From assembly GCF_003018255.1 (NCBI RefSeq), contig NZ_CP027440.1: a stretch of 64,000 bases of DNA. One strand, 5' to 3'. The first letter of the stretch is position 1. Each line of letters starts with the position of its first letter. Position numbers and translations under genes: made by a program. The notes beneath the pieces are model-generated. The model was not told where the DNA came from, searched no databases, and worked only from the letters and a program-made list of their open reading frames with translations. Shown in pieces: positions 5,337 to 52,049 of this stretch. The DNA comes from Escherichia coli (GTDB taxonomy: Bacteria > Pseudomonadota > Gammaproteobacteria > Enterobacterales > Enterobacteriaceae).

Positions 5337-5570
5337 TCAGCTCAGTACCAGCCAGAAGCTGACTAGCACCAGTAACAGTGAATGGGCCGCCACCGCGCCA
5401 AAGCTCTGCCAGCTCAGACGCTGGCGGCAGACGCCCTGCCAGGCGACCATTAGCGTCCAGGCACACCACAGCAGCAGGACGCTGGTAAACAGGCCGAGCA
5501 CCAGCAGGCTGACGGTCTCCGGTTTGCTCAGGCTGGCGGCCTGAAAGGCGGCGAGTTGCGAGTCAGTCAT
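5337..5570 (-). CDS. ICE small membrane protein
   Basis: 77 aa ORF, two predicted TM helices, tightly packed in the operon. Confidence 0.45.
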   Translation of the reverse strand: MTDSQLAAFQAASLSKPETVSLLVLGLFTSVLLLWCAWTLMVAWQGVCRQRLSWQSFGAVAAHSLLLVLVSFWLVLS

Positions 5571-5871
5571 CGGGATTCTCCTGCTGGTAGTTGGCGCTCA
5601 GGGGCTGAATAGCACGCGGCTGTGCTCTAGCCGGGGCAAGATAGCGGCGAATGCCTTGTTCAACGACAGAGATGTCCTGCTGCGCCTGTAAGTAGTCGAA
5701 GAAGTAGCGCGCCTGCGGATCGTTGCTGGCGCTGGTCCGGGCGTGCTCCAGCGAGGTTTTAACGCCGTCGAGTTGCTTCAGCGCGAGGGCGAGCTGGGTG
5801 GATTCCGGGGAGGCGATTACCAGTACCGGGAAAGGTATTATTAACAGTAATAGTGCTGTCTGGGACTGCAT
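5563..5871 (-). CDS. RAQPRD-family integrative conjugative element protein
   Basis: 102 aa ORF with signal peptide and the family-defining motif (here RAQPRAI). Confidence 0.6.
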   Translation of the reverse strand: MQSQTALLLLIIPFPVLVIASPESTQLALALKQLDGVKTSLEHARTSASNDPQARYFFDYLQAQQDISVVEQGIRRYLAPARAQPRAIQPLSANYQQENPDD

Positions 5872-5938
5872 TTGAAGCTCTCCTTATACTCAATGATTAG
5901 CAAAGTAGGAGAGCTTCAGAGGTGAAGCAGCTAAAAAA

Positions 5939-21172: not shown

Positions 21173-21210
21173 ATCCATTAGTATAATATCAATGGATAAA
21201 GGCTTCTGTT

Positions 21211-23157
21211 ATGAATTTTGAAGAGCTTATAAATGATATTGAAAGACTCTTAATTGGTAAAGAGTTGCAGTCTATAAATCCTAACACCCCCCCATTATTC
21301 CTTTTAAAAATAGACAGGGATATTGGTAAATATTACGTGTCTGTTTCTTTAAATGCTAAGCCTACGGCAAGGTCAATTTCTGAATTTGAATATATATTTA
21401 ATGACTTACTGCGTAAAGGGTTTTGTAATGTAGATCAGTCATTATATGGTAGCTCTTCAAGCCGTAATCACCCGGAAACAATATTTGCAAACTTGCCTTA
21501 TATTCAATTCTTTAAGTTCAAGAAAAAGAAACATATATTATTACGTAATAAAAATGTACACGAAGCAGGTCAACTTTCTGAATTACAAGGGGCTGAGTCT
21601 CGTGCTATAAGGAAGCAAATAGAAAATTATTTATCTCTAAATTTAAGTGAAATTGCAGAGCAGCAGTTAAAATCGTTGGAAAAAATGTTCGATGCGTATG
21701 ATGCTATTTTAAAAAAATACCCAGGGGATATCCCTGTTATAATGGCTGAGCAAGGCTTGTTGGGATTAAAAAACATTAGCGAAGTACTGATTAATTCTTA
21801 TGTTTCCTTGGATTTTGACAGTAGTGGCGATAAAATAAATAAATTAAGTAAATTTAAACAGGTGGAGTTATTTAAAGAAGATTTATCTTTAGAGGATTTA
21901 ATTGAGTCCCCTGAGATAAGTGGAGTTGATTCAGGTGATAAGAATATTGAGGAACAATCGGAATCAGAATTAGCACCTGAGCAAAAACGTACGGGCATTG
22001 CAAAAATGCTTATGACTACACCAGTTTTAACACTAATTTTTGATCGTGTAAGATATGATGAAATTGAGTTACAACCTGACTTTCAGAGAAAAGACCGAAT
22101 TTGGCCTGACGACAAAAAGTCAAAACTTATTGAATCAATATTAATGAAGCTTCCATTACCGGGGTTTTACTTTGGTGAAAAGCCAAACGGTAACTGGGTA
22201 GTTATTGATGGCCTTCAAAGAACGACTACAATTTGTGATTATATGAGTGGTCATTTCTCATTGAAAGGGCTCTCTATTTTAGAGCACTTAAATGGAAAGA
22301 GTTTTAAAGATCTTACTCGAACCGAGCAACGAGACATTAGAGAGTATCAAATTACGGCTTACCAAATAGAACTAAATGATGATAGTTCTGAATTGGTTGT
22401 AGAACTATTCCATAGAATAAACACTTATGGTGTAAAGTTAAGTAGTCAAGAAATAAGATCTGCACTTAATAAAGGCAATAGCGTAACCTTTTTACGTTAT
22501 TTAGCTTCATTAGAAACGTTCAAAAAAGCGACGCAATTTAAAGTAAAGCCGGACAGGCAAAAAGATATGGAGCTCTGTTTGTCCGCTCTTGCTTTTATGG
22601 TACTTGGTTATAATAACTATGGCCAACATTCGTATGATCATTTTTTATGTAGTGCAATGCAGAAGCTAAATAATTATCCATTAAGCATCATTAATAAAGA
22701 AGAGATTGATGCTGGAACAGCTCTTATTTCTCCTTCAAGTGAAGTCTTTTTAACTTTATATTCAAAATATAATCAGGCTTTAATCTTAGCAAATGAAGTT
22801 TTTGGTGAAATAGCTTTTTCAAAAGATCCGGAAAATAAAAAATCACCTATTAATAAACAACTCTTTGAGTTAATTGTTACTGTTTTCTCTGTATTTGACT
22901 CACATCAAAAGGAGATGATGTTAGCTAATGGTGATAAATTTATTGATAGCTTATACTTGGCTATTGAGGAGAATAGTAGTCGATATGCTAAGTGGGAGTC
23001 TGATACATATGAAAAGGACGATAGAGGATTTAGAGACTCAATATCTACTTCGACAGGTAAAAGAATATCTGTTGTATATCGATTTGATGCTTTTTTAAAT
23101 ATCCTTGGAAAAAGCACAGGAATAACTATTGATAGTAAATTATTACAGGGGGAGTGA
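21211..23157 (+). CDS. DUF262 / ParB-like (GmrSD N-terminal-type) domain protein with unknown N- and C-terminal domains
   Basis: 648 aa; central region has LQPDFQRKDRIW and DGLQR (variant of the DGQQR motif); no recognisable DUF1524/His-Me nuclease motif; AT-rich. Confidence 0.7.
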   Translation: MNFEELINDIERLLIGKELQSINPNTPPLFLLKIDRDIGKYYVSVSLNAKPTARSISEFEYIFNDLLRKGFCNVDQSLYGSSSSRNHPETIFANLPYIQFFKFKKKKHILLRNKNVHEAGQLSELQGAESRAIRKQIENYLSLNLSEIAEQQLKSLEKMFDAYDAILKKYPGDIPVIMAEQGLLGLKNISEVLINSYVSLDFDSSGDKINKLSKFKQVELFKEDLSLEDLIESPEISGVDSGDKNIEEQSESELAPEQKRTGIAKMLMTTPVLTLIFDRVRYDEIELQPDFQRKDRIWPDDKKSKLIESILMKLPLPGFYFGEKPNGNWVVIDGLQRTTTICDYMSGHFSLKGLSILEHLNGKSFKDLTRTEQRDIREYQITAYQIELNDDSSELVVELFHRINTYGVKLSSQEIRSALNKGNSVTFLRYLASLETFKKATQFKVKPDRQKDMELCLSALAFMVLGYNNYGQHSYDHFLCSAMQKLNNYPLSIINKEEIDAGTALISPSSEVFLTLYSKYNQALILANEVFGEIAFSKDPENKKSPINKQLFELIVTVFSVFDSHQKEMMLANGDKFIDSLYLAIEENSSRYAKWESDTYEKDDRGFRDSISTSTGKRISVVYRFDAFLNILGKSTGITIDSKLLQGE

Positions 23158-24305
23158 TGAAAAAAATTACGTCTTTAACATTAAAAAATTTCAAAGCTTA
23201 TAAAGAACAGAGTTTTGATTTTAGTAATTTAACTGTATTTTGCGGTAATAATTCTGTTGGTAAAAGTACGGCTATTCAAGCTATCGGTATGTTTCTCCAA
23301 TCAGATATGAATGGTAACAGTAATCTAAAAATAAATGGCGATTTAGTTCATGTCGGAGACTTCGACGATATTCATAATTTCAGTATGCGTGAGGATGATG
23401 TTTTATATTTAAAATATACATTTGAAGACGATACGGCTTGCTGGGGATATGGTATAGAAGAAGGGGATGCTAGAGAAGAACTTTCTAGGAAAAATGAATT
23501 ACCTTTTATTGGGTGTGATAAACAATTAAGAACTATAACAAACTCACTTAAAGATAACTTTTCATTCCAATATTTGGAAGCGGAGAGATTTGGTCCAAGA
23601 GATAATATTCCATTATCACAGCACAATTATCATGAAGGTTGGCTTGGGAAAAATGGGGAACATACAATTGAAGTTCTTGAGAGTTTGGTCACAAGGAGGC
23701 GTTTAAATTTTTCTGCTCAAGAGGATCCTAGGAAACATGAAGGAATTATTAATAATAATGTTTTCAATCATATTGAAGCATGGATGTCTGAGATTTCACC
23801 AGGGCATCGTATCTCACCTAGAATTGAGGCTAGGGCGAATGTTGCATTTAATGTCATAATCCCTTCACCTGGACAATTAACGAAACCTATTAACATAGGA
23901 TTTGGATTTAGTTATGCTCTTAGTATTGTCACTGCTTTAATGCTGGCATCAAAAAATGAACTCGTTATTATTGAAAATCCTGAGGCTCATCTACATCCAA
24001 GAGGTCAAAGCTATTTAGGACGACTTATTGCTTTATCAGCAAAAGCAGGGATCCAGGTTATTATTGAGACTCATAGTGATCATCTTCTTAATGGCATAAG
24101 AGTAATTGCACGCACAGATCCAACTTTTGATGCTTCTCTTTTTACTCTTTACTATATTTCACGAGAAAATGATGAAACATCTGTCGCCAAAATAAAAATA
24201 AATAATGAAGGGAAACTTTCCGAATGGCCTAGAGGGTTCTTTGATCAACAATCACAGGATATGTATACGATAATGACAGGCTCTTTTGATCATCCCAATA
24301 TTTAA
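23157..24305 (+). CDS. ABC/SMC-like AAA ATPase (AAA_15/AAA_21-type with DUF3696-like C-terminal region)
   Basis: ORF track 23154 (GTG); ATG at 23157 overlaps upstream TGA (TGATG) with GGGGAG RBS. Walker A GNNSVGKST; ENPEAHLHP Walker B/D-loop signature; ETHSDH H-loop. Confidence 0.75.
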   Translation: MKKITSLTLKNFKAYKEQSFDFSNLTVFCGNNSVGKSTAIQAIGMFLQSDMNGNSNLKINGDLVHVGDFDDIHNFSMREDDVLYLKYTFEDDTACWGYGIEEGDAREELSRKNELPFIGCDKQLRTITNSLKDNFSFQYLEAERFGPRDNIPLSQHNYHEGWLGKNGEHTIEVLESLVTRRRLNFSAQEDPRKHEGIINNNVFNHIEAWMSEISPGHRISPRIEARANVAFNVIIPSPGQLTKPINIGFGFSYALSIVTALMLASKNELVIIENPEAHLHPRGQSYLGRLIALSAKAGIQVIIETHSDHLLNGIRVIARTDPTFDASLFTLYYISRENDETSVAKIKINNEGKLSEWPRGFFDQQSQDMYTIMTGSFDHPNI

Positions 24306-24324
24306 TATTGTAGGGACATATAAA

Positions 24325-25209
24325 ATGAAAGCTGGCGTGTTTCTTATTCCTGAATGTTTTGATTTCAATACGGATATTTTATCTTTAAGTTCGGACCTTG
24401 ATCTGGCTTCGAAACTCGTAGTAAATACCCGTTCAGAATTTATTCACTTTATGAAATCTAGGGAGTTTGACTCGAAGATTGCGGAGTTATTGTTTTCCAC
24501 ATCACCTGATTATGCTGGAATGATGTCAAGATTTTACGATCAGCATCTATCAAAAGTTATAAAAATGGATATTAATGACGATGATATTATTGATATTATA
24601 AATAGCGAAGAACCTAAGTATTCTAACCGTTTGTTATCAATTTTTAATACGGGAAAAAAAGATTTAAATATTAAATATGTTAATAGATTAATTGACTCAG
24701 AAATTAAGATGAATGATTATTGTACTGATATCTTATTGAATTACCCAAGAAATGACGAGCAATACTGTGAGGATATACAGCAGGTTTATAAAAATTTAAT
24801 TTTCCTAGATTATCCAGAGGCAAAAGAATTTAAGACATTTAATAGTCTCAAGAGAATGACCGGTGGTTATGATAATTTCTTGAAGGCTATAACCAATTTT
24901 TTAAGTTATATGAATAAATTCGAATTCAAAACGAAAGATATGATGGATACATTGAAAATGATGGAGAGTGATTTAGGATCTCCAGTAACTCCGGAAGGAG
25001 GGGGGAAGAAAAGCCGATCTTTGAAAAGAGATTTTTTAATTAATGGAAAGCTATATACAAATGTAAACTGCGAATTCCATTTGAAATTAGAAAATGTTGA
25101 TGATACTAAGGGAAACAGAAAACACCATAAGAATAGAATTTATTTTGGATTTATTATGATAAGTGATAAAAACAGAGTGGCAATAGCTCATATTGGGGAA
25201 CACATTTGA
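24325..25209 (+). CDS. Hypothetical protein, third gene of the DUF262-ATPase operon
   Basis: ORF track 24286..25209; ATG at 24325 with AGGGA RBS follows the ATPase stop by 20 nt; 294 aa, no recognisable motif. Confidence 0.5.
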   Translation: MKAGVFLIPECFDFNTDILSLSSDLDLASKLVVNTRSEFIHFMKSREFDSKIAELLFSTSPDYAGMMSRFYDQHLSKVIKMDINDDDIIDIINSEEPKYSNRLLSIFNTGKKDLNIKYVNRLIDSEIKMNDYCTDILLNYPRNDEQYCEDIQQVYKNLIFLDYPEAKEFKTFNSLKRMTGGYDNFLKAITNFLSYMNKFEFKTKDMMDTLKMMESDLGSPVTPEGGGKKSRSLKRDFLINGKLYTNVNCEFHLKLENVDDTKGNRKHHKNRIYFGFIMISDKNRVAIAHIGEHI

Positions 25210-25219
25210 AATCATTTTA

Positions 25220-25248
25220 AACCTACTGATAGTATATATCAGTAGGTT
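25220..25248. terminator. Perfect palindromic hairpin between convergent operons (likely bidirectional terminator)
   Basis: AACCTACTGATAGTATATATCAGTAGGTT between stop of the plus-strand operon (25209) and stop of the minus-strand restriction gene (25271). Confidence 0.5.
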
Positions 25249-25270
25249 CATGTTAATTTGATGTTCTTAG

Positions 25271-26344
25271 CTATATAACACAATCTTCCATAAAAGAATC
25301 TAGAAATAAATCATTTATTCCTTTAGGTTTTCTTCGGTCGCATAGAGAGTATAATTCTTCAACTGAAGAGTAAGGGAAGAATTTAGCTTTTAATTCAATG
25401 AATTGGGGCATGTTTGCAAATTCTATCACCTTTGCTCGATATTCATCAGGAGCAACGATAGTCCAACGGATATCTTGTAATCTCGGTGCATGATCATAGA
25501 ATTGTTTCATGCGAGTCAGACCACTTTTTATACCAGTACTGTGTTCAATCTCCATTACTGCTGGCATCATGCGGCCTTCCCTAAACCAAATGCAGTCTAT
25601 AAGACGAGCATCTTTAATCGCATCATTATACGATTGGAGTACTTGCTCATCAGATAATGAACTTATTACACCGTCCATTTGCGCTATAGCTTTACCATTA
25701 TATTGTAAGCTACGATCATTGGCTGCTACCCAAGTATCTAAACCTAAACAATAACCTATTTTTACTAAGGCAATTTGTATCTGAGCATGACGTCTTTTTT
25801 CTTCAATAGTCATGCCTTTAGTCGGTTTAATTGTCTCAATATCAACGCTTTGGTGAACAACATCGAAGCTCATTTCAGAGACAACAATATTAGTCTGGTG
25901 CTCAATTAACAAACCATTAGTATGTGGCATATCTGGCAGAAAAATCAGATGCTTATGTCCTGGTTTTATAGACTTTTGTGCATTCATGATTTCCAGTCTG
26001 GCTGGCCTACACCAATAGAACTCTGGAGTATGTGCGAGCAAGCTCTCCAATACCGAGCGGGTGTTGTAACTGGCACCGAAAACCCTTTCAACGTTGACAG
26101 GTCTGTTTTCTTCGAGTGCATTTGCAAGTCGCCAAAGCATTTGAGTCGAAATACTCTCTGTTTTAGCTGTTGCTTGAGTTTGACCTTTCTTAGGATCAAA
26201 TCTCTTTATTTCGATAGGACCTTCGGGATGTTGGATACGTACAATCTCAATCTTCCCGCTATTCCTATCGTTTATATAGTTAAACAGCGTATTTTTGGGT
26301 AAGCTCGAAATCGCCTGAACCAGATTCGATGCTGTTATCCTCAT
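25271..26344 (-). CDS. Putative Type II restriction endonuclease partnered with the adjacent C5-methyltransferase
   Basis: 357 aa ORF directly downstream of and overlapping the MTase 3' end (about 65 nt, ATG at 26344 with AGGA RBS); no family motif recognised; call is from gene context. Confidence 0.5.
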   Translation of the reverse strand: MRITASNLVQAISSLPKNTLFNYINDRNSGKIEIVRIQHPEGPIEIKRFDPKKGQTQATAKTESISTQMLWRLANALEENRPVNVERVFGASYNTRSVLESLLAHTPEFYWCRPARLEIMNAQKSIKPGHKHLIFLPDMPHTNGLLIEHQTNIVVSEMSFDVVHQSVDIETIKPTKGMTIEEKRRHAQIQIALVKIGYCLGLDTWVAANDRSLQYNGKAIAQMDGVISSLSDEQVLQSYNDAIKDARLIDCIWFREGRMMPAVMEIEHSTGIKSGLTRMKQFYDHAPRLQDIRWTIVAPDEYRAKVIEFANMPQFIELKAKFFPYSSVEELYSLCDRRKPKGINDLFLDSFMEDCVI

Positions 26345-27419
26345 TACTGTATCCTAAATGTTGCAAAATTGATTGGGCAATACCGAGCGCGGCGATATAG
26401 GGAACTCCGTTTCCGACTGTTTTAAACATATTCGACAAAGTCATATCCCCTGGTAGCTCAAAATTTTTTGGCAAAGACTGGATTGCCAATGCTTCAGCGA
26501 CCGTAATACGACGAGGTTTGTATGGGTGAAGGTGAACTTCATTATTACCATATGCTGCTGTTGGAGAGTATCTCCAGCGATGAAGCCTTTTATATGATTT
26601 TTTACTATCGTCGCCTTCTTCTACTGACTGGAATCTTGCTAAACCGGCTCGGGCCGTAAATACATGTTTAGCGTTTGGATGATTGGTAACATCGTTTTTC
26701 TCGAACCAGTATTCTATAGTAAGTTCTTCTGGAATACCTTGCGGGCATTCCATACTTGAGTCTTCTTCGTATGTGTTTGTTGTTGGCCAAGGGAACTGGA
26801 AAGCTTCCTTATTGGGGTATATTTGGCCACTCCATTCGAAGTTTTTGGCTAAAGACTTATCAAGAAAACCAACTAAAATAATCCTTTCTCGATCTTGAGG
26901 CGCACCGTATTCAATTGAATTAATCAATCTTTCATGCAGGATATATCCTACTGAAGCTAGTTCATTCTTAATTTGTTCGAAAAATTCTCTATGTTTAAGA
27001 GTCCGGTATAAGCCTTTAACGTTTTCAAAAAGGAAGAAATCAGGCATCATTTCAATTATCAGGTCAATGTAACTTTGTGATAATTTGCCATTTTCACCAT
27101 CTTTGCCTTTGTTTTTGCCAGCAACAGAAAAGTCAGGGCATGGTGGTCCGCCAATGAAGCCCACTAGGCGGTTTTCACCTTTCAGTGTTTTCATGCTATG
27201 CTTAATCACTGAATGCTCAATAGTTTCAATGCTTTCTTGGGCATACCCAAAGCGTGGCGGCTGTTTGCCAAGTTTTTTTCTTGAGTGTTTATACGCGTCC
27301 ATGAAGGGAGGATGGAATTCATTGACGAAAACCACCTCATACCCGGCATTTTCGAAGCCTAGGTCAAGAAAACCTGATCCTGAAAAGAATGAAAATATAG
27401 CGGGTTTCATTGTGGACAT
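26280..27419 (-). CDS. DNA cytosine-5 methyltransferase (Dcm-like)
   Basis: 379 aa; motif I FSGSGF, PC motif GGPPCPDFSVAGK, ENV motif ENVKGL. Confidence 0.85.
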   Translation of the reverse strand: MSTMKPAIFSFFSGSGFLDLGFENAGYEVVFVNEFHPPFMDAYKHSRKKLGKQPPRFGYAQESIETIEHSVIKHSMKTLKGENRLVGFIGGPPCPDFSVAGKNKGKDGENGKLSQSYIDLIIEMMPDFFLFENVKGLYRTLKHREFFEQIKNELASVGYILHERLINSIEYGAPQDRERIILVGFLDKSLAKNFEWSGQIYPNKEAFQFPWPTTNTYEEDSSMECPQGIPEELTIEYWFEKNDVTNHPNAKHVFTARAGLARFQSVEEGDDSKKSYKRLHRWRYSPTAAYGNNEVHLHPYKPRRITVAEALAIQSLPKNFELPGDMTLSNMFKTVGNGVPYIAALGIAQSILQHLGYSNEDNSIESGSGDFELTQKYAV

Positions 27420-27644
27420 TTTATACCTATCAAGTTAGCTTAAATTTTTACTAAATATCTCGCTGTACGATCCTACTATTTTACATGATAACTTGTTAAT
27501 TATCAATTTACTTTTTAATATATTAGCAAATAAGACCTGGCACTACTTCAGATTAGATAGTATTCATTGCTATAAAGTTAGGTGTTAATATATTGATTAA
27601 TAGTATAAGCTGCTATTATAGATTTAGAAACCGAAGGAACTTAT

Positions 27645-28100
27645 ATGCCTGATATGAGGTTATTTAAATCAAAAAACACCAAACTTGAGTTAAGAATCAG
27701 GAAGCCGTTGTTTGCCAGAGGATTTCGTTATCGATTGCATAATAGTGGTTTGCCTGGTAGACCAGATATGTATTTCCCTAAATACAATGCAGTCATTTTT
27801 ATCCATGGCTGTTTTTGGCATGGGCATGATAACGGCTGCCCTATATCTCACACTCCTAAAAATAATGAATCGTACTGGCAAAATAAAATCAATAAAAATC
27901 AAGAAAGAGATGTCAAAAATCAATATGTTCTTGCATCTAAAAACATCCGCGTTCTGATTATATGGGAGTGTGCAATAAAACTTAAAAGTATTGATTTTGT
28001 CGATTTTATTGATTACATCGATGAATGGCTTAGAGGTGGGGCAAATTCAACACAGATGAGCGCAAAGGAACCAATGCCGACTTTTGAGTTTCCGAAATGA
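27645..28100 (+). CDS. vsr: Very short patch repair endonuclease (Vsr)
   Basis: 151 aa; Vsr-like sequence incl. FIHGCFWHGH; divergent from the C5-MTase as is typical. Confidence 0.85.
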   Translation: MPDMRLFKSKNTKLELRIRKPLFARGFRYRLHNSGLPGRPDMYFPKYNAVIFIHGCFWHGHDNGCPISHTPKNNESYWQNKINKNQERDVKNQYVLASKNIRVLIIWECAIKLKSIDFVDFIDYIDEWLRGGANSTQMSAKEPMPTFEFPK

Positions 28101-28282
28101 ATTATTATGACAAGTTCCCTTGAGTGGTAATATCTAACATCGTTATTTGCTAATATATATATGAAATAAAGTAATTGCCAAGAAATTTATTACAAAACAA
28201 GACCCGCAAAAAATCTCTTTCCATGTGGGGTTTTATTAGCTATTAGTGTTTGGTTAAATTATTAACCATCAATAGGCATCCT

Positions 28283-28423
28283 ATGCTTCAATCTCTGAAC
28301 CACTTAACGCTCGCCGTCAGTAATTTGCAAACTAGCCTGACATTCTGGCGCGATTTACTAGGGCTACATGTGGGAGATTTAGCATCCCGACTGACGCAGT
28401 GCCGGGAGAGGCCTTGCTCTTGA
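28283..28423 (+). pseudogene. fosA: Remnant of a fosA-like (glutathione transferase, fosfomycin resistance) gene with large internal deletion
   Basis: 46-codon ORF MLQSLNHLTLAVSNLQTSLTFWRDLLGLHVGDLASRLTQCRERPCS: first ~28 aa match the FosA N-terminus and the rest matches the FosA C-terminal HVGSLAARLAACRE region, from memory. Confidence 0.45.
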
Positions 28424-28555
28424 ATGCGTTTCGGACCTGGAAAATAATTACGCAACTTTGTGATCTTCCACCCAGTATTCAATTTTATGTCCCATTTTGG
28501 GGGCAAATCCTCAAAATAAAATCTCACAAACCATTATTTTTCAACGAATTAAACG

Positions 28556-28588
28556 CAAAGGCGAGTCCGGCCTTCGACCTTCGCACCA
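28556..28588. repeat. Degenerate copy of the 3' end of tRNA-Leu (leuX): candidate distal att repeat (attR) of the genomic island
   Basis: GCGAGTCCGGCCTTCGACCTTCGCACCA resembles the leuX 3' end GGTTCGAGTCCGGCCTTCGGCACCA (from memory); no full tRNA present. Confidence 0.45.
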
Positions 28589-29353
28589 TCGGAACATCAA
28601 TAGACGTCAACGGACGTTTTTTTATGACTGAAATCCGCGCCACACAAGGCTTTTCGCTATTTTTCGCTCAACCTAAGTCAACCTACATCAACTTACTGAT
28701 GTGGATACAGCTACAGCTGCGGCTATATCCCGATTCGATAATGTTTGTACCCACACAAAACCCTTGAAAGGCTACAAGGCTGAAATTGTCTAAACCATAG
28801 AGATGATTTTTATGATCCAGTCTTTCTCTTGTTGAGATAGTTCCAGTTTGCTCACTCGTGTTAAGAAGGTATTGATCACCTGAACATCCGAATTGGTGAG
28901 CCTATTTAATAGAGCGGGTGGTATACCTTTACTAACAATCGCTTTGCGGTGACTTTCGTAGTTTTTATTACTCATTGTTGATCCTCAAAAATCATTGTAT
29001 GGCGGCATTGATCGTTTCCAGCAACCTTTACTTACTCACTTCGAACTGCATCCTCGTAGACTGTTCCACTACAATAATCGAAAAGGCGCGGATGTCCATT
29101 CAGGTATCCCGCTAATACGTATAGCAATAACAATGGCTTATGCGGCGCGCGCTGTTCACCCTTGTGCCAGATTTTTATATTGGCAATTGCCTGCTGTAGC
29201 GATTTACTGGAAGCCATTGATATCCCTGGCAGTGAAATAATTGCGATCATGCTCGCAAATTTTCTGCTGTTCAAGCCTGCAAGTGAAGATATATTACCTT
29301 GATCTCATTTGTTTTTTTGCTGCCTGTTCTGAGAACGTATAAGGACATTCTCC

Positions 29354-30004
29354 ATGAATAAACTCCCTGATCATCTTCCGCGGCGGTATATCATCGAAGC
29401 TATCCATTTATGGGATGCGGGAGAAACTCATCAGTTCCAGCCTGCGCGGTTGTATGAGATTGAATATCATGGCCGACGTTACCCCTCGAAGGCGATTGCT
29501 GGCATCGCAGCGACATTGATGACGGGGACGCAATTTACCCCTGCGGATTTCACCGGCGGAATAAAATCTAAATGCGTCAAACTACTCATAGAGCAGGGAT
29601 TTCATATTCATCAGGATAAAGCCGCTGCGGCTCCCATAGCCGACGTTCTGTTCCCGGATGAGTTGCCGTCGCAGGAGACATACCTTGAAGGTGCGGCGAT
29701 AAAGGTGACAGTAAACCGCTATGAACGCGATAAAAAGGCCCGAGATAAAGCGGTCGAACATCATGGATGCCAGTGCAACGTATGCGGCGTTGATCTGGTG
29801 AAGATCTATGGTGATATCGCTGAAGGCTTTATCCATATGCATCACCTGGTGCCGCTTTCAGCCATTAAAGAGGATTACCAGCTGGATCCAGTTAATGATT
29901 TGCTGCCTGTGTGCCCTAATTGCCATGCGATGCTGCACCGACGCAAACCACCGTTTTCACCGGAGGAGTTAAAAGCGTTGATGGATGCAAATAAATCAAA
30001 TTAA
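29354..30004 (+). CDS. HNH endonuclease with uncharacterised N-terminal domain
   Basis: 216 aa; C-terminal HNH motif CQCNVCG...HMHHLVPLS...N...CPNCH. Confidence 0.7.
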   Translation: MNKLPDHLPRRYIIEAIHLWDAGETHQFQPARLYEIEYHGRRYPSKAIAGIAATLMTGTQFTPADFTGGIKSKCVKLLIEQGFHIHQDKAAAAPIADVLFPDELPSQETYLEGAAIKVTVNRYERDKKARDKAVEHHGCQCNVCGVDLVKIYGDIAEGFIHMHHLVPLSAIKEDYQLDPVNDLLPVCPNCHAMLHRRKPPFSPEELKALMDANKSN

Positions 30005-30011
30005 TGAACGC

Positions 30012-30992
30012 TCACCTTTCGCGCCAAAACCGCAAAATTGCTTCTACAAACCTGTCAGAAATAATCCCCCGACGGGCTGCCGCGCTGAAATGACTGCTTC
30101 GCAGTGCCGTCGTCCAGTTCTCCGGTGACCGGTACGCTGAACCGTAATATCCCGTGCTTAAATCGTCCGGATCTTCATCAGGCGCGTTCGTCAGTCCTCT
30201 TTCACCTTGTTGCTGGAAGTCGACGAAAATAATATTGGCTAAAACATTATTTTGATAATTGCCATAAATCGCTTCATACGCATGAGGGAAATTTTCTTTC
30301 CAGTACCAGGTGGTATCGCCGCAAAACCACGGTGCGTCAGTAATATTATTAAGCTGAGAATGGTATTGTTTTAGATCCCTACGAAAGGCTTCAACCATAT
30401 GATTAAAGTGTTGAGGGTGTGACGAGTAGTCACAGGTCATTAAGTCAAATTCGCCTTGCATCCAGCATACGCCGAGGAATTTGTTCTGCGGATTTTTTGC
30501 CAGTGCGGCTCGCGTTCTGCTGACTAAATCCTGGTACAGCGGAGTATCCGTTCCCCAACGACAAGCATCATGGCTGGCTCCGTGCCGTTCTGAATATGTC
30601 CCTTCGCTGCCCGCGGTAAAAGCCGATCCGCCACGGCAACACGGAACGATGAGAACCCCTGCGTTATCAGGAATAAAGGGCAGTAATTTCCGTGCAATAT
30701 GCAGTGCCTGGCCAACGGTGCCGTACTGTGTTTGATGATTTGTTGCCAGAGGATGGTGATAACCCTGCATATCCTGAACATCGTGTGGGCAGTGAGTCAG
30801 TGGAATAATGTCGTTAAAGTGACATGACGGGCCTCCGGGATGCGTATGCGCAAATCTCGCTAATTGTTTAATTCTGGGATGAGGCGCATCTTCCCTGTCC
30901 GGTAATGGCAGTCCTTCGCCATACGCCATGGCATTAGACTGACCAGCAACGGTAAGAACATAGTAATAATCGGGCGATATTATTGCGTTCAT
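30012..30992 (-). CDS. nanS: N-acetyl-9-O-acetylneuraminate esterase NanS
   Basis: ORF 30012..31019 trimmed to ATG at 30992 (MNAIISPDYYYVLTVAGQSNAMAYG...), 326 aa; nanS-nanM-nanC context. Confidence 0.85.
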   Translation of the reverse strand: MNAIISPDYYYVLTVAGQSNAMAYGEGLPLPDREDAPHPRIKQLARFAHTHPGGPSCHFNDIIPLTHCPHDVQDMQGYHHPLATNHQTQYGTVGQALHIARKLLPFIPDNAGVLIVPCCRGGSAFTAGSEGTYSERHGASHDACRWGTDTPLYQDLVSRTRAALAKNPQNKFLGVCWMQGEFDLMTCDYSSHPQHFNHMVEAFRRDLKQYHSQLNNITDAPWFCGDTTWYWKENFPHAYEAIYGNYQNNVLANIIFVDFQQQGERGLTNAPDEDPDDLSTGYYGSAYRSPENWTTALRSSHFSAAARRGIISDRFVEAILRFWRER

Positions 30993-44964: not shown

Positions 44965-46149
44965 ATGGAACAGACCTGGCGCTGGTACGGCCCAAACGAT
45001 CCGGTTTCTTTAGCTGATGTCCGTCAGGCGGGCGCAACTGGCGTGGTTACCGCGCTGCACCATATCCCGAACGGCGAAGTATGGTCCGTAGAAGAGATCC
45101 TCAAACGCAAGGCGATCGTTGAAGACGCAGGCCTGGTGTGGTCTGTCGTTGAAAGCGTACCAATTCACGAAGATATCAAAACCCACACTGGCAACTATGA
45201 GCAGTGGATTGCTAACTATCAGCAGACCCTGCGCAACCTGGCGCAGTGCGGCATTCGCACCGTGTGCTACAACTTCATGCCGGTGCTCGACTGGACCCGT
45301 ACTGACCTCGAATACGTGCTGCCAGACGGCTCCAAAGCTCTGCGCTTCGACCAGATCGAATTCGCTGCATTCGAAATGCATATCCTGAAGCGTCCAGGCG
45401 CGGAAGCGGATTACACCGAAGAAGAAATTGCTCAGGCAGCTGTTCGCTTCGCCACTATGAGCGACGAAGACAAAGCGCGTCTGACCCGTAACATCATTGC
45501 CGGTCTGCCAGGTGCGGAAGAAGGGTATACCCTCGACCAGTTCCGTAAGCACCTGGAGCTGTACAAAGATATCGACAAAGCGAAGCTGCGCGAAAACTTC
45601 GCTGTCTTCCTGAAAGCGATTATTCCAGTTGCTGAAGAAGTTGGCGTGCGTATGGCGGTTCACCCGGACGATCCGCCGCGCCCGATCCTCGGCCTGCCGC
45701 GCATTGTTTCCACCATTGAAGATATGCAGTGGATGGTTGATACCGTAAACAGCATGGCGAACGGTTTCACCATGTGCACCGGTTCCTACGGCGTGCGTGC
45801 TGACAACGATCTGGTTGATATGATCAAGCAGTTCGGTCCGCGTATTTACTTCACCCATCTGCGCTCCACCATGCGTGAAGATAACCCGAAAACCTTCCAC
45901 GAAGCGGCGCACCTGAACGGTGACGTTGATATGTACGAAGTGGTGAAAGCGATTGTTGAAGAAGAACACCGTCGTAAAGCGGAAGGCAAAGAAGACCTGA
46001 TCCCGATGCGTCCGGACCACGGTCATCAGATGCTGGACGACCTGAAGAAGAAAACCAATCCTGGTTACTCCGCAATTGGTCGTCTGAAAGGCCTGGCCGA
46101 AGTTCGCGGTGTCGAACTGGCGATCCAGCGCGCTTTCTTTAGCCGTTAA
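44965..46149 (+). CDS. uxuA: Mannonate dehydratase UxuA
   Basis: ORF 44929 trimmed to [40 protein letters not shown], 394 aa. Confidence 0.95.
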
Positions 46150-46229
46150 TATCCACCGGCATGGCTGCGCGCCGTGCCGGTTCCTTCTTCCTTGCCGTCA
46201 CTCTCTGAAGACGGATTCTGGAGTTTACG

Positions 46230-47690
46230 ATGACTACTATTGTTGACAGCAATCTGCCGGTTGCCCGCCCGTCATGGGATCATTCTCGTCTGGAATCACG
46301 CATTGTGCATCTCGGTTGCGGGGCGTTTCACCGCGCGCACCAGGCGCTGTACACTCATCACCTGCTGGAAAGCACGGATAGCGACTGGGGGATCTGCGAA
46401 GTTAACCTGATGCCAGGCAACGACCGCGTGCTGATCGAAAACCTGAAAAAACAGCAACTGCTGTACACCGTGGCGGAAAAAGGCGCAGAAAGCACCGAGC
46501 TGAAAATTATCGGTTCGATGAAAGAAGCCCTGCACCCGGAAATCGACGGTTGCGAAGGTATTCTCAACGCGATGGCGCGTCCGCAGACGGCGATTGTCTC
46601 TCTGACGGTCACGGAAAAAGGCTACTGCGCAGATGCGGCAAGCGGTCAACTGGATCTCAATAACCCGCTGATCAAGCACGATCTGGAAAACCCGACTGCG
46701 CCGAAGTCTGCGATTGGTTACATCGTAGAAGCCCTGCGTCTGCGTCGTGAAAAAGGGCTGAAAGCATTTACGGTGATGTCCTGCGATAACGTGCGTGAAA
46801 ACGGTCATGTGGCGAAGGTTGCCGTTCTTGGGCTGGCTCAGGCGCGTGACCCGCAACTGGCGGCATGGATTGAAGAGAACGTCACCTTCCCGTGCACCAT
46901 GGTTGACCGCATCGTTCCGGCGGCGACGCCAGAAACCTTACAGGAAATTGCTGACCAGCTGGGTGTTTACGACCCGTGCGCCATTGCCTGCGAACCGTTC
47001 CGTCAGTGGGTAATTGAAGATAACTTCGTTAATGGTCGTCCGGACTGGGATAAAGTCGGCGCGCAGTTTGTTGCGGATGTTGTACCGTTCGAAATGATGA
47101 AGCTGCGTATGCTGAACGGTAGCCACTCTTTCCTGGCGTACCTCGGTTACCTCGGCGGCTATGAAACTATTGCCGACACCATGACTAACCCGGCTTATCG
47201 CAAAGCGGCCTTTGCCCTGATGATGCAGGAACAAGCGCCAACGCTGTCGATGCCGGAAGGTACAGACCTGAACGCTTATGCGACGCTGCTGATCGAGCGT
47301 TTCAGCAACCCGTCTCTGCGTCACCGTACCTGGCAGATTGCAATGGACGGCAGCCAGAAGTTACCGCAGCGTCTGCTGGACCCGGTGCGTCTGCACCTGC
47401 AAAACGGCGGTAGCTGGCGTCACCTGGCGCTGGGCGTGGCGGGCTGGATGCGTTACACCCAGGGCGTGGATGAGCAGGGTAATGCCATTGACGTGGTTGA
47501 CCCGATGCTGGCGGAGTTCCAGAAGATCAACGCGCAGTATCAGGGTGCAGACCGCGTGAAAGCACTGCTGGGCCTGAGCGGTATCTTTGCCGATGATCTG
47601 CCGCAGAACGCCGACTTTGTTGGCGCGGTGACGGCGGCATATCAGCAGCTGTGTGAGCGCGGTGCGCGCGAGTGTGTGGCTGCGCTGTAA
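46230..47690 (+). CDS. uxuB: D-mannonate oxidoreductase UxuB
   Basis: 486 aa; N-terminal Rossmann motif LGCGAFHRAHQALY. Confidence 0.95.
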   Translation: MTTIVDSNLPVARPSWDHSRLESRIVHLGCGAFHRAHQALYTHHLLESTDSDWGICEVNLMPGNDRVLIENLKKQQLLYTVAEKGAESTELKIIGSMKEALHPEIDGCEGILNAMARPQTAIVSLTVTEKGYCADAASGQLDLNNPLIKHDLENPTAPKSAIGYIVEALRLRREKGLKAFTVMSCDNVRENGHVAKVAVLGLAQARDPQLAAWIEENVTFPCTMVDRIVPAATPETLQEIADQLGVYDPCAIACEPFRQWVIEDNFVNGRPDWDKVGAQFVADVVPFEMMKLRMLNGSHSFLAYLGYLGGYETIADTMTNPAYRKAAFALMMQEQAPTLSMPEGTDLNAYATLLIERFSNPSLRHRTWQIAMDGSQKLPQRLLDPVRLHLQNGGSWRHLALGVAGWMRYTQGVDEQGNAIDVVDPMLAEFQKINAQYQGADRVKALLGLSGIFADDLPQNADFVGAVTAAYQQLCERGARECVAAL

Positions 47691-47714
47691 CTAACTGATT
47701 ACCCTACAGACTTA

Positions 47715-47759
47715 CTGGTCAATCAAACTAATATTTGGTTGACCAGTTTTCGTTTTTTT
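47715..47759 (+). terminator. Rho-independent terminator downstream of uxuB
   Basis: CTGGTCAATCAAACTAATATTTGGTTGACCAG hairpin followed by TTTTCGTTTTTTT. Confidence 0.6.
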
Positions 47760-47833
47760 GCCCACCTGTACGTGCCAACATCCAGTGCTAATGGTATAGT
47801 TTGAGCTTAACGGGTGCCGTAAAATTGCCCGTT

Positions 47834-47866
<33 letters not shown>

Positions 47867-47904
47867 AAAAAATTTGATTAACCGCACCTAACGGACACAA
47901 CACC

Positions 47905-48678
47905 ATGAAATCTGCCACCTCTGCGCAAAGACCTTACCAGGAAGTCGGGGCGATGATCCGCGATCTGATCATAAAGACGCCGTACAATCCTGGCGAACGG
48001 CTGCCACCGGAGCGTGAAATTGCAGAAATGCTTGATGTCACGCGGACGGTGGTACGTGAAGCGCTGATCATGCTGGAGATCAAAGGGCTGGTGGAAGTGC
48101 GCCGGGGTGCCGGTATTTATGTTCTTGATAGCTCAGGCAGCCACAACACAGACAGTCCGGATGCCAACGTCTGTAATGATGCCGGTCCTTTTGAGCTGTT
48201 ACAGGCGCGTCAGTTACTGGAAAGTAACATCGCGGAATTTGCCGCTTTGCAGGCTACCCGCGAAGATATCGTCAAAATGCGTCAGGCATTGCAACTGGAA
48301 GAGCGTGAACTGGCTTCCAGCGCGCCGGGTAGCAGCGAAAGCGGTGATATGCAGTTCCATCTCGCCATTGCCGAAGCAACGCATAACAGCATGCTGGTGG
48401 AGTTATTCCGTCAGTCCTGGCAGTGGCGGGAAAACAATCCAATGTGGATCCAATTGCACAGCCATCTCGATGACAGCCTGTATCGCAAAGAGTGGTTGGG
48501 CGATCACAAACAGATCCTCGCCGCGTTAATCAAAAAAGATGCCCGTGCGGCGAAGCTGGCAATGTGGCAGCATCTGGAAAACGTTAAACAACGTCTGCTG
48601 GAATTCTCGAACGTTGACGATATTTATTTTGACGGCTATCTGTTTGATTCATGGCCGCTGGATAAAGTCGACGCCTGA
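47905..48678 (+). CDS. uxuR: GntR-family repressor UxuR
   Basis: 257 aa; N-terminal winged HTH, FadR-type C-terminal domain. Confidence 0.95.
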   Translation: MKSATSAQRPYQEVGAMIRDLIIKTPYNPGERLPPEREIAEMLDVTRTVVREALIMLEIKGLVEVRRGAGIYVLDSSGSHNTDSPDANVCNDAGPFELLQARQLLESNIAEFAALQATREDIVKMRQALQLEERELASSAPGSSESGDMQFHLAIAEATHNSMLVELFRQSWQWRENNPMWIQLHSHLDDSLYRKEWLGDHKQILAALIKKDARAAKLAMWQHLENVKQRLLEFSNVDDIYFDGYLFDSWPLDKVDA

Positions 48679-49082
48679 TCCCTCATTTCTGGTGCAAAGT
48701 TGAACCGCTTTGCACTATGTATGTTCCCTGAATAGTTAATTATGTTCTGCAGAATATATTATGCGTAAATTAATCATTACGTACGATATATTGTTTTGGA
48801 ATAATTATATATCAGTTTAACGCTGAGAAATTATTCGGAATAATCAGAATATGTTAACGTATTTCCGTTATGTTTAATGACTTTTGTCAAATGATACCTT
48901 TTTAAATAAAAAGTCAGTGGATATTCTTTTCTGTACAGTGTTTTATCTTTGGCGGATCTTATAAATCCCTTATGAAAGTGCCAGGGACGCAATGAGCATA
49001 AAGGAATGATTATGGAATATGAGCATCAACCCAGTGGTGTCCGGCAGCCAGGGCAGGATACAGATGCCACTAAACGTCAGGA

Positions 49083-49475
49083 GTGCGCAAAATGATGCGC
49101 CAATCAGTTCAGACGGTATTACCTGAAAGTACAGGACACAATACGTTATCGCTGCGTGATTCCGTATGCCGGGATCTCTTTCAACTTTTTAGTTCTCCCC
49201 ATTCACCGCTACCAATATTACTTGTTTCAGGCATGCCTGAGTGGCAAGGGCATAATCAGAGCGACAAGCTTCTCCAGAGTTGGTATTGCCGCCAGTTACG
49301 TTCCGCGCTTTTATTTCATGAGCCACGTATTGCGGCATTGCAGGTCAATCTGAAAGAAGCCTATTGCCACGAGTTGGCCATTAGTCTGGAGATGATGCTG
49401 TACCACGATGATGAGCCGCTAACGTTTGACCTGGTCTGGCAGAAGGGGAACTGGCATCGCACGATGCCGCAGTAA
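49083..49475 (+). CDS. iraD: Anti-adaptor protein IraD (RpoS stabiliser)
   Basis: 130 aa matching IraD/YjiD; preceded by an AT-rich regulatory region. Confidence 0.8.
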
Positions 49476-49522
49476 ATGACGGGAAACGCGATACGCGCAA
49501 GACGTATCGCGTTAGGTCACAA

Positions 49523-49864
49523 TTAGTGGGAGGCTCTGATTGCTGCTTTCAAGGCCGGAAGCCGGGATGGACTGGCACTGAGCTTATCAATCCCCATGGT
49601 GAGCAGTCGTGCTGTTTGCTGGATATCTCCAGCCATTTCGCCGCACATACTGACCGGAATTTCATTATTACGTCCGGCCTGACACACCATAGCAATAGCG
49701 TTAATCACCGCGTCATTACAATAATCGACCAGTTTCGCGACGGTGCTATTTCCTCTGTCTGCCGCCATAATATATTGCGTCATATCGTTGGTGCCGATGG
49801 AAAAGAAATCGACTTCACTGGCTAATTTGTCTGCAATCATGACTGCGGCAGGAACCTCAATCAT
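49523..49864 (-). pseudogene. C-terminal fragment of a PEP-utilising enzyme (PTS enzyme I / PtsI-like)
   Basis: 113 aa ORF with MIEVPAAVMIADKLASEVDFFSIGTNDMTQY...MCGEMAGD, the conserved PEP-utilisers C-terminal region; no N-terminal domains upstream (iraD is adjacent). Confidence 0.6.
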
Positions 49865-49900
49865 AATTCCCAGCGCCGGAAGATTTTCTGCAGAAAACTT

Positions 49901-50812
49901 TCAACCAGGTTCAATCTCCAGCTCGCGCAGTTCACGCCAGAAGCGTTCGGCAATTGGATTCATGCGGGTATTCATCCGGTATGCGTAGGCCTGAATCGGG
50001 ATCACCAGTTCTTCCCGATTCAGTACAACGAGCTGCCCGCTGCGAATTTCTTGTTGGATAGCGTATTCCGGCAGCCAGGCAATCCCACAGCCGTCGAGGG
50101 CAACCTGCTTTAATAGCTCGCTCATCGAAGAGACAAAAAAGGTGCTGAAACTCAACTCACTGTGGCGCGTCAGGGTGCGATTAATCAATCGCCCCATGTA
50201 GGAGTTGCGGCTGTAATTCAGTAACGGAAAGTGTGGCTGCGCGAGGTTAAACAGTGCTTCTCCGTGTTCGTCACTGGCGCAGACGGGGAATAATTGAGAT
50301 TCAAATAAGCGAATGTGGTCAAACGGCGCTTCCAGCAAATCTTCGTCGTGAAAGGAAAAAATACAGTCACTTTGCCCTTCGCGCAGTTTATCGACCGCTT
50401 CATCGACATCAATGGCTTCAATTGCCCAGGTAAAGAGCGGCGGCATCTGGCTGATAATGGACGGTAACAGACCGAGGGAAAGAGAGTGTGCAGCGGCTAT
50501 CTTGATTTTACGTTGCGCGTAATCGCTGCCGCCACGCAGCTCTGCCAGGTTGCTTTCTAACTGTTGCAACAGATGGCGGATCTGCGAATGGAAGATTTTC
50601 CCTTGTTCCGAGAGTTGCAGCGGCGTCACCTGGCGGTTAAACAATTCAACGCCAATCGCCTGTTCCAGTGCACGGATGCGGCGGCTGAATGCCGGTTGCG
50701 AGACGTTGCGACTGACTGCCGCCTGGGAAAAATTGCGACATTTTTCCAGGGTCAGAAAATCATAAAGCCATTTGGTTTCAATGTTATGCAAAACCGCACC
50801 ACAGTCATCCAT
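49901..50812 (-). CDS. hypT: LysR-family hypochlorite-responsive regulator HypT (YjiE)
   Basis: ORF 49901..50890 trimmed to ATG at 50812 (MDDCGAVLHNIETKWLYDFLTLEKCRNFSQAA...), 303 aa. Confidence 0.85.
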   Translation of the reverse strand: MDDCGAVLHNIETKWLYDFLTLEKCRNFSQAAVSRNVSQPAFSRRIRALEQAIGVELFNRQVTPLQLSEQGKIFHSQIRHLLQQLESNLAELRGGSDYAQRKIKIAAAHSLSLGLLPSIISQMPPLFTWAIEAIDVDEAVDKLREGQSDCIFSFHDEDLLEAPFDHIRLFESQLFPVCASDEHGEALFNLAQPHFPLLNYSRNSYMGRLINRTLTRHSELSFSTFFVSSMSELLKQVALDGCGIAWLPEYAIQQEIRSGQLVVLNREELVIPIQAYAYRMNTRMNPIAERFWRELRELEIEPG

Positions 50813-50876
50813 TACGTTATACTCTGTCAGCCGCCCTTGCGGGCATTCTACGTCCATTCGGGCGGCTGACAACCGG

Positions 50877-52049
50877 TTATGCCGTTTCAAACGTTCCTTT
50901 CACGCAGGCTTTGCCGTCTTTGACCATCAGTTTGCCGCGAGCGTATACCTGCTCAATGCGCAATTCAGGCGTCATGACCAGTAAGTCTGCGTCATTGCCT
51001 GGCAGAATTTCGCCTTTCCCGGTCAGGTTAAGGAAACCGGCTACGCTACTGGTGAGCGGGCGCAGGGCATCGCTAAGGCTGAAGCTATAGTCTTTGACCA
51101 ACATTTGCACGGTTTCCAGCAATGTTTCAAAACCTGCAACACCGATATGGGTTAAATTTCCTTCGTCATCAAAGAACGGCTGGCTACCGTTGCCGTCGGA
51201 GCTGAGGGTGACGCGTGCCAGCGGAATACCCGCCTGAACGGCGCGGGCAATACCTTCGGCAGGGGCGACCGGTTCGTCAATGCTACTGGTGATGTCGATG
51301 GTGCCGCCTTTGCGCGCGAACTCCAGCGCCTGCTCAAACAACGGAACGTTGCGGTTAACGTGGGTCGGCAGCAGCTTGCTGATCGGCACATCGCAGTTTT
51401 CCAGCAGGTCATAGACAGGCTGTAACGCCTTTTTGCTGTCGCCCATGTGGAACACGGTGACGCCAGGTTTACCGCCAAGCAAACCGCCAACGCGGGATTC
51501 CGCCGCCATATTAGCCAGGTGATAAACGTCAGGTGCGGCAGAACGGTGATCAGAGATGGCGCATTTCACACCAATCACGCGATCGATAATCGCCACGTCT
51601 TTTTCCACGGAACCTGTAATGGTGCGGGAAGGGACATGATAAGCGCCGGTCAGCATCCAGGCGCTGATGCCTTCTTCATTGAGCGCACGGGTCTTGGCGA
51701 GCAGGGATTCCGGGTGGCGAGAGATAGAGTCGGTACCCAGCAGACCAACCACTGACGTGACGCCCGCTTCCGTCAGACGACTTAACGCCACTTCCGGCGT
51801 GCGTGTCGTGGGACCTGCTTCGCCGCCACCACCAATCAAATGGACGTGTTGATCAATAAAACCTGGGCAGAGGATCTGCCCGCTGAGATCGACAACCGTG
51901 CAGTCTGGTACAATGTCAGAAGGGATGTTGCTGGCAACGGCAATAATTTTGCCGTTAGCGATGAGGACATCGCAAATTCCCCGATCTTCCGGCGCATACA
52001 AATGCGCTCCCTGCAGCAGGGTAAAACCGGCTGCGGAATAATCAATCAT
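50877..52049 (-). CDS. iadA: Isoaspartyl dipeptidase IadA
   Basis: 390 aa amidohydrolase (HxH metal motif QHVHLIGGGGEAG). Confidence 0.9.
   Translation of the reverse strand: MIDYSAAGFTLLQGAHLYAPEDRGICDVLIANGKIIAVASNIPSDIVPDCTVVDLSGQILCPGFIDQHVHLIGGGGEAGPTTRTPEVALSRLTEAGVTSVVGLLGTDSISRHPESLLAKTRALNEEGISAWMLTGAYHVPSRTITGSVEKDVAIIDRVIGVKCAISDHRSAAPDVYHLANMAAESRVGGLLGGKPGVTVFHMGDSKKALQPVYDLLENCDVPISKLLPTHVNRNVPLFEQALEFARKGGTIDITSSIDEPVAPAEGIARAVQAGIPLARVTLSSDGNGSQPFFDDEGNLTHIGVAGFETLLETVQMLVKDYSFSLSDALRPLTSSVAGFLNLTGKGEILPGNDADLLVMTPELRIEQVYARGKLMVKDGKACVKGTFETA

Follow-up and report, generated by a model that had tools for sequence, protein, structure and literature searches.

A short uxuR-iraD spacer that lacks yjiC probably marks one of two old haplotypes of the Escherichia uxuR-hypT locus

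The question raised by this locus is why a gene that Escherichia coli K-12 carries between uxuR and iraD is missing from the same place in another E. coli. The window, a 64,000-nt stretch of contig NZ_CP027440.1, drew attention because an original prediction found an AT-rich uxuR-iraD spacer of about 400 bp without yjiC, and suggested either a strain-specific deletion or an error in the assumed K-12 gene order. Our answer is a different one. We assign a probability of roughly 0.85 to the reading that Escherichia has two old uxuR-hypT haplotypes, which exclude each other, and that the short spacer is normal for one of them.

Besides a conjugative element, the window covers nanMC, the fim operon, gntP, uxuAB, uxuR, iraD, hypT, iadA and the sequence that follows; it is 99.99% identical to strain JNE23-011 (NZ_AP045067.1). 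By the annotation of that strain, positions 1 to about 20000 are part of an integrative conjugative element (ICE) of the PFGI-1/SPI-7 class, with traD, pilL2, ParB, TIGR037xx ICE proteins, a topoisomerase III pseudogene and a toxin-antitoxin pair of the RelE/ParE-CopG type; the G+C content is about 60% save for one 49% bin at 4-8 kb. The adjoining cargo region (about 21200-30100; 36-39% G+C) encodes a DUF262 and DUF3696 pair, an HNH endonuclease, a Vsr endonuclease accompanying a Dcm-type cytosine methyltransferase, and pieces of a phosphorothioate-dependent restriction gene, and looks like a defence island.

The iraD open reading frame behind uxuR spans 49083-49475 when read from a GTG start; RefSeq uses the ATG at 49092, as annotated in JNE23-011, which is 100% identical here. 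The interval 48679-49082 is 404 bp long to the GTG and 413 bp to the RefSeq ATG, and its G+C content is 35.4% against 50.4% for the entire window. K-12 YjiC is a 276-residue, full-length DUF2686 protein encoded by a gene of 40% G+C, and is 42% identical to its paralogue YjfZ. A tblastn search of the 64-kb window with YjiC gave no match (best E = 2.3), nothing of the DUF2686 (YjfZ/YjiC) family is present in the window, and the K-12 cassette DNA (positions 5351-6729 of the K-12 locus sequence, L001) shares only chance 12-18-mers with it. No minus-strand DUF2686 reading frame lies between uxuR and iraD; the sole minus-strand frame in the spacer, 53 codons from a TTG at 48831-48992, is unrelated to YjiC. 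These results bear out the description of an AT-rich spacer of about 400 bp that lacks yjiC. The assumed K-12 gene order was also correct: in the MG1655 annotation, uxuR and iraD are 1,643 bp apart and enclose yjiC (b4325, minus strand), ytiC, ytiD and idlP.

Two candidate small reading frames in the spacer were rejected. A 19-codon frame at 48763-48822 is frameshifted in strains SCPM-O-B-8794 and E69 (alignment A2) and has no Shine-Dalgarno sequence, and the 53-codon minus-strand frame had no support as a conserved small ORF.

BLAST comparison with K-12 delimited the variable block. Positions 46000-48678 are 96.8% identical to K-12, with homology stopping exactly at the uxuR stop codon; from 49912 on, in hypT and the sequence after it, identity to K-12 is 96.7%. 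The only aligning piece between these flanks is 48829-49447, which corresponds to K-12 from -264 of iraD into the gene and is 77.7% identical. The 1,233 bp at 48679-49911 occupy the place of 2,039 bp in K-12 (L001 5351-7389), and the features of the block are collected in Table 1. The last three hypT codons belong to the block because K-12 homology resumes only at 49912. HypT ends in LEIEPG-stop in the window, Escherichia sp. E1V33 and E. whittamii, and in LEIVLS-stop in K-12 and the GimA-positive strain A0 34/86.

Table 1. Features of the uxuR-hypT variable block and its anchors in the window
Feature	Position	Strand	Remark
uxuR	47905-48678	+	Left anchor, 96.8% to K-12
Haplotype-specific AT-rich segment, 150 bp, 32% G+C	48679-48828		No K-12 similarity
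Terminator-like hairpin 3' of uxuR	48690-48717	+	Haplotype-specific; -15.1 kcal/mol, z = -4.4
iraD promoter-proximal/leader region	48829-49091	+	About 72% to K-12 -264 to -1
P2 equivalent: -10 TATCTT and aligned start site at about 48955	48944-48955	+	By alignment only
GGA motifs aligned with CsrA BS2-BS4	48984-49016	+	Alignment with K-12 sites
idlP homologue, 27 aa	49012-49095	+	17/27 identical to K-12 IdlP
iraD, divergent allele, 127 aa	49092-49475	+	78% to K-12 IraD; GPW_gp25 domain
342-bp GimA remnant, 3' fragment of pptE/ptnI	49523-49864	-	PEP-utilizers_C 180-290 of 293
hypT	49901-50812	-	Right anchor; K-12 homology 96.7% from 49912

The 150-bp segment directly behind uxuR replaces a 1,379-bp K-12 cassette that holds yjiC, the small RNA UxuT, the iraD promoter P1, ytiC and the 5' part of ytiD. 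Local alignment of the segment on both strands with the K-12 and E. albertii cassettes gave scores within the range of 200 shuffles. A yjiC scar within the segment was accordingly rejected as a candidate, its alignment scores being no better than those of the shuffles. The same segment is found at 94-99% identity in A0 34/86, E1V33 and E. whittamii. The uxuR terminator hairpins of the two arrangements are non-homologous; the K-12 hairpin has a folding energy of -17.1 kcal/mol, and the stem of the window hairpin is invariant across a six-sequence alignment. Between the window and A0 34/86, uxuR is only 95.6% identical, and recombination has made a mosaic of the left flank as well.

The iraD gene of the window encodes a recognizable but divergent protein. 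The 78% identity to K-12 IraD extends over 127 residues, with residues 61-116 nearly invariant, and Pfam assigns the GPW_gp25 domain at E = 2.2e-12; the GPW_gp25-like fold and the conserved core identify the product as an IraD orthologue, in agreement with the RefSeq name. A similar value, 74.6%, has been published for K-12 IraD and YjiD of CFT073, where yjiD was deleted jointly with iraL and yaiB, not singly, to destabilise sigma-S (PMC4045071); RssB binding and stabilisation of RpoS are the activities that characterise the IraD anti-adaptor. The iraD region is 72-82% identical to K-12 against about 97% for the flanks. Synonymous divergence (dS) between the window and K-12 is 0.78 for iraD (dN 0.105), a value that rests on about 80 synonymous sites, and 0.11-0.17 for the flanking genes uxuB, uxuR, hypT and iadA. 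The K-12 gene is the outlier allele, with about 82% nucleotide identity to every other allele. It overlaps the 3' end of hypT and encodes a C-terminus, …DNGGWRSATLENVS, that differs from that of the window. Its final 14 or so nucleotides look like the end of GimA that lies next to hypT, a hint that a clean GimA deletion may have given rise to the K-12 type.

Regulation of iraD has been worked out in K-12, where the yjiC-iraD intergenic region is 672 bp long. P1 (start site -417) is a sigma-70 promoter used in late-log and stationary phase in a ppGpp-dependent manner, and P2 (start site -137/-138) is used in exponential phase. The leader contains three translated ORFs, ORF23, ORF47 and ORF27, which correspond to ytiC, ytiD and idlP; ORF27 is translationally coupled to iraD and is itself the target of CsrA repression through sites BS1-BS4, and a DnaA box lies at -81. 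These features and the P1 and P2 positions used here were taken from Park et al. 2017 (mBio; PMC5574718) and bioRxiv 10.1101/2021.05.20.444958. The same stretch figures among H-NS-bound 'promoter islands' and overlaps predicted foreign DNA (PMC3661553). The uxuR terminator RNA of K-12 is the 3'-UTR small RNA UxuT (PMC10016265). Azidothymidine (AZT) induces yjiC about 11-fold along with idlP and iraD (PMC11228462). A yjiC transposon mutant of an atypical EPEC strain was reported to be biofilm-deficient.

Homology between K-12 and the window begins at K-12 position -264, and therefore P1, ytiC and UxuT all lie in the K-12-only cassette. The P1 promoter-like match maps to L001 6543-6570 and UxuT to L001 5367-5445, both inside the cassette, and the window has no UxuT sequence; about 9% of the E. 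coli genomes sequenced are unable to encode this RNA. The equivalent of position -417 falls inside uxuR in the window. In the alignment with K-12, a P1-type distal promoter with ytiC and an intact ytiD is absent from the window, as is the divergent yjiC, whereas the P2-proximal 264 bp or so are homologous although only about 72% identical. The predicted iraD regulatory region within the interval thus holds for the promoter-proximal part at 48829-49091 and fails for the remainder. The window -10 hexamer TATCTT (48944-48949) aligns with TATACT, its counterpart in K-12 P2, and the P2 start site in the window is placed by alignment with K-12 only; a simple consensus scan detected P2 in neither haplotype. 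The same kind of scan found two promoter-like sites against a chance expectation of 2.5 when a substitute upstream promoter was sought, and one of these lies at 48817-48844 (+); a replacement promoter was rejected, the number of sites being no greater than chance.

The proximal leader retains much of the K-12 layout. GGA is conserved at the putative CsrA sites BS2 (48985-48987), BS3 (49003-49005, the idlP Shine-Dalgarno) and BS4 (49014-49016), as placed by alignment; the BS1 GGA of K-12 is missing from the window. The idlP TGA overlaps the iraD ATG as ATGA at 49092-49095, the same overlap as in K-12. Conservation also covers the length of idlP (27 codons) and the iraD Shine-Dalgarno/start region, while IdlP identity is 63%. 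At the -81 DnaA box the window has TATTCCATA and K-12 has TTTTCCATA, which match the strict consensus at 7/9 and 8/9 positions. Minimum free energy structures of the leader are no more stable than those of shuffled sequences (z = +0.65 for the window and -0.30 for K-12), a consensus fold across haplotypes contains only two covarying pairs, and an Rfam scan of 48500-49600 returned a chance archaeal snoRNA as its sole hit (gathering score 38, observed score 17 bits, E = 0.21). Because the BS2-BS4 GGA motifs, idlP, the ATGA overlap and the Shine-Dalgarno/start region are conserved, CsrA repression of iraD and its coupling to idlP are probably retained in the window haplotype. We infer further that iraD here would have no P1-type stationary-phase promoter at the homologous place, and it is without yjiC as a co-induced divergent partner. 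The idlP gene is un-annotated in the RefSeq records of the window haplotype (JNE23-011, CFT073 and A0 34/86), and all four full-length spacer matches listed have no feature under the match; K-12-type genomes have idlP and ytiD annotated.

The sequence downstream of iraD connects the locus to a published polymorphism. The GimA island is located between yjiD (iraD) and yjiE (hypT), and Homeier et al. 2010 (PLoS One 5:e10877) described three patterns at this position: complete GimA, no GimA and a 342-bp pptE remnant. CFT073, 536 and F11 carry the remnant, which was nearly confined to phylogroup B2 and ST117 and was read as reductive evolution within phylogroup B2 (PMC2878320). The 342-bp ORF downstream of iraD in the window is the C-terminal part of a PEP-utilising enzyme (PEP-utilizers_C, E = 9e-40), is labelled a pseudogene in RefSeq and is 98% identical to the 3' end of the full-length ptsP/pptE of A0 34/86. 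The published primers pptE FP and RP map to the two ends of this ORF with 0 and 1 mismatch, and the window therefore has the published GimA-remnant pattern, sharing with it the pptE/ptnI 3' fragment between iraD and hypT. The rest of GimA, about 20 kb with ibeA and other genes, is absent and hypT directly follows the remnant. Strain A0 34/86 shares the spacer and the iraD allele of the window and continues with the full ptsP-dhaL-dhaK-gldA ... gcl ... dhaR-ibeA-nhaC set, which is GimA, and 19.87 kb of its sequence is missing between window positions 49896 and 49883, where the alignment ends overlap. The nearest genomes are JNE23-011 and JNE112863 (99.8-99.9%), followed at 98.3% by numerous avian pathogenic strains, one of them an O78:H4 isolate; the window itself contains no phylotyping marker.

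Two points differ from the account of Homeier et al. (PMC2878320): a GimA-type difference upstream of iraD is not described there, with 0 occurrences each of yjiC and uxuR in that paper, and the same deletion junction also occurs in Escherichia sp. E1V33. The junction (window 49865-49912; L004 10770-10850) is shared with E1V33 over 81 bp at 96% identity with no gaps. The two deletion ends in A0 34/86 have an imperfect TTTT(C)TGCAGAA microhomology in common. The shared junction suggests that GimA was deleted once and that recombination then distributed this deletion, as opposed to repeated deletions.

A population sample of 5,426 complete E. coli genomes was searched with the 413-bp spacer. The full-length spacer was found in 491 genomes, in 483 of them at >=99% identity, and 4,903 genomes matched only spacer bases 151-413 at about 72%; there were no intermediates between these two classes among the 5,426 genomes. 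The K-12 cassette (yjiC to ytiD) was present in 4,910. Since the cassette and short-spacer counts sum to about 5,426, the two forms look mutually exclusive, and yjiC does not appear to be hiding elsewhere in the short-spacer genomes. The iraD-remnant-hypT junction of the window was present in 265 of the short-spacer genomes, and about 248 further records gave two separate matches, as expected if a GimA island separates iraD from hypT. The RefSeq annotation of CFT073 reads uxuR, 413 bp, iraD, PEP-binding pseudogene and hypT, which is the window arrangement. S88, which is GimA-negative, is of the K-12 type with yjiC.

A species scan with IraD as query and one genome per species recovered five informative loci, with E. 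fergusonii, E. marmotae and E. ruysiae not recovered by name, and yjiC is missing from four of the five non-coli Escherichia representatives. One alignment of E1V33, at 92.8% identity, runs collinearly through window positions 47905-50900 and takes in the spacer, iraD, the remnant and the deletion junction. The short spacer without yjiC also occurs in E. whittamii and in SCPM-O-B-8794 and E69, two GTDB species representatives that carry the NCBI label E. coli. E. albertii has a yjiC orthologue between uxuR and iraD (62% amino acid identity to YjiC, 43% to YjfZ). Its breakpoints relative to the window, 48679 and 48829, are the same as those of K-12, and its upstream module is collinear with K-12. 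A full pptE-dhaL (GimA1) operon follows iraD in E. albertii, and yjiC and GimA genes occur together there. Because E. albertii carries both, the rule that GimA-type loci have no yjiC applies to E. coli and does not extend to the genus. Both upstream modules occur in other Escherichia species and are therefore older than E. coli.

The yjiC/promoter/idlP part of E. albertii NBRC 107761 (L007 8436-10400) is K-12-like, with 81.8% identity to K-12 versus 67% to the window, and its iraD coding sequence and downstream pptE-dhaL are nearer the window (87% versus 81% to K-12); the locus looks mosaic by these identities. The proteins encoded by a 605-bp contig filed under 'Bacillus coahuilensis m4-4' (NZ_ABFU01000118.1; L009) match K-12 IraD and the C-terminus of HypT at 100% identity, and the contig is almost certainly E. 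coli K-12 contamination of the assembly.

Divergence within the block is far lower than in its surroundings when the short form is compared across species. Between the window and E1V33, dS is 0.05 for iraD and 0.04 for the remnant (the latter, like iraD, offering about 80 synonymous sites) and 0.22-0.72 for the flanks; between the window and E. whittamii it is 0.095 for iraD and 0.28-0.75 for the flanks. The non-coding spacer is 94-98.5% identical across these comparisons, uxuR 88% and iadA about 92%. Between E. coli and the cryptic-clade genomes, uxuR is unusually diverged, with 88% nucleotide identity (dS 0.72-0.78) against 94-95% for the adjacent uxuB (dS 0.22-0.28). Block synonymous divergence 5-15 times lower than that of the flanking core genes argues for recent exchange between species. 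SCPM-O-B-8794 shows 96.6% identity upstream yet an iraD dS of 0.35, a case in which spacer conservation could partly reflect selection on the leader and not recent transfer. The short spacer of E69 is about 20% diverged from that of the window, and the short form itself is thus old. We read these data as an old dimorphism whose short form would have recently crossed lineage and species boundaries by homologous recombination.

The two haplotypes can be written as follows. The K-12 type runs from uxuR with its own terminator and UxuT through yjiC (-), P1, ytiC, ytiD, P2 and idlP to iraD and then hypT. The CFT073/GimA type runs from uxuR with the other hairpin through 150 bp of unrelated AT-rich sequence, a P2-like region and idlP to the divergent iraD, then GimA or its remnant, and hypT, with the window representing the remnant form. 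Homologous recombination in the conserved flanks would carry the block from lineage to lineage, and apparently also from one Escherichia species to another. Since the 150 bp are unrelated to the cassette and the iraD region is 72-82% identical against flanks of about 97%, the difference is presumably a haplotype replacement rather than a clean excision from a K-12-like locus.

Two polarities are compatible with an old pair of haplotypes. In the first, the yjiC form is ancestral, one old event put the 150 bp in place of the yjiC-P1 cassette, and the short haplotype then recombined into the cryptic clades and a minority of E. coli lineages. The E. albertii yjiC at identical breakpoints in an upstream module collinear with K-12 fits this order, and recent spread predicts the cross-species dS of 0.04-0.10 for the short haplotype against 0.2-0.7 for the flanks; however, the diverged E69 spacer indicates that the short form is old, and there is no deletion scar. 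We hold this polarity tentatively. In the second, the short spacer is ancestral to E. coli and the cryptic clades, and the AT-rich yjiC-P1-ytiCD cassette, along with a divergent iraD, entered the ancestor of most E. coli lineages by import and reached E. albertii either independently or at an earlier time. The four of five non-coli representatives without yjiC, the outlier status of K-12 iraD, the promoter island over predicted foreign DNA (PMC3661553) and the 40% G+C of yjiC point in this direction. No donor has been identified, and the 62% identity of the K-12 and E. albertii YjiC proteins at the same site fits long vertical residence equally well, which leaves the import a tenable but provisional proposal.

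The reading of two old haplotypes can be extended to function. In that extension, a trans-species spacer-idlP-iraD-(GimA/remnant) block, recently exchanged between minority E. coli lineages and cryptic Escherichia, would replace yjiC, P1, ytiC, ytiD and UxuT, and would rewire the starvation and replication-stress input to RpoS stability in CFT073-type extraintestinal pathogenic E. coli (ExPEC), contributing to atypical sigma-S regulation. As a whole this extension is rather unlikely.

Recent deletion of yjiC from a K-12-like locus in this strain, the explanation first offered, accounts for the missing gene and for a spacer about 1.24 kb shorter than in K-12. It is nevertheless very improbable: the same spacer is present in 491 of the 5,426 complete genomes, CFT073 included, and representatives of four other Escherichia species also have it; the 150 bp found there bear no relation to the K-12 cassette; identity of the neighbouring iraD region to K-12 is 72-82% rather than about 97%; and the uxuR terminator hairpin has a different sequence. 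Relocation of yjiC to another part of the strain's genome would agree with direct inspection having covered 64 kb of it, but 4,910 cassette genomes and about 491-512 short-haplotype genomes approximate 5,426 and leave no room, at megablast sensitivity, for genomes with both, and relocation is scarcely credible. The doubt over the assumed gene order is dispelled by the MG1655 annotation, in which the uxuR-iraD spacer is not a gene-free stretch of about 400 bp but contains yjiC and three further genes.

The short spacer is ordinary, largely known strain variation in the plastic fim-uxu-GimA neighbourhood and has been in reference genomes since CFT073; the present result is a refinement of a known polymorphism and not a new kind of element. 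The literature searched for yjiC, iraD and uxuR contained no statement linking the GimA type to a lack of yjiC, P1, ytiC, ytiD and UxuT, which is no proof of absence, nor any report that species share the block or the remnant junction. Published typing into GimA-negative, remnant and GimA-positive strains marks a larger haplotype that reaches upstream past iraD to the uxuR stop codon. The K-12 model of iraD, with two promoters, three leader ORFs and co-induction of yjiC by DNA damage, is not transferable unchanged to about 9% of sequenced E. coli, because these strains, model uropathogens among them, lack P1, yjiC and UxuT. For RpoS control in ExPEC lineages, the sequence comparison suggests a modest regulatory implication.
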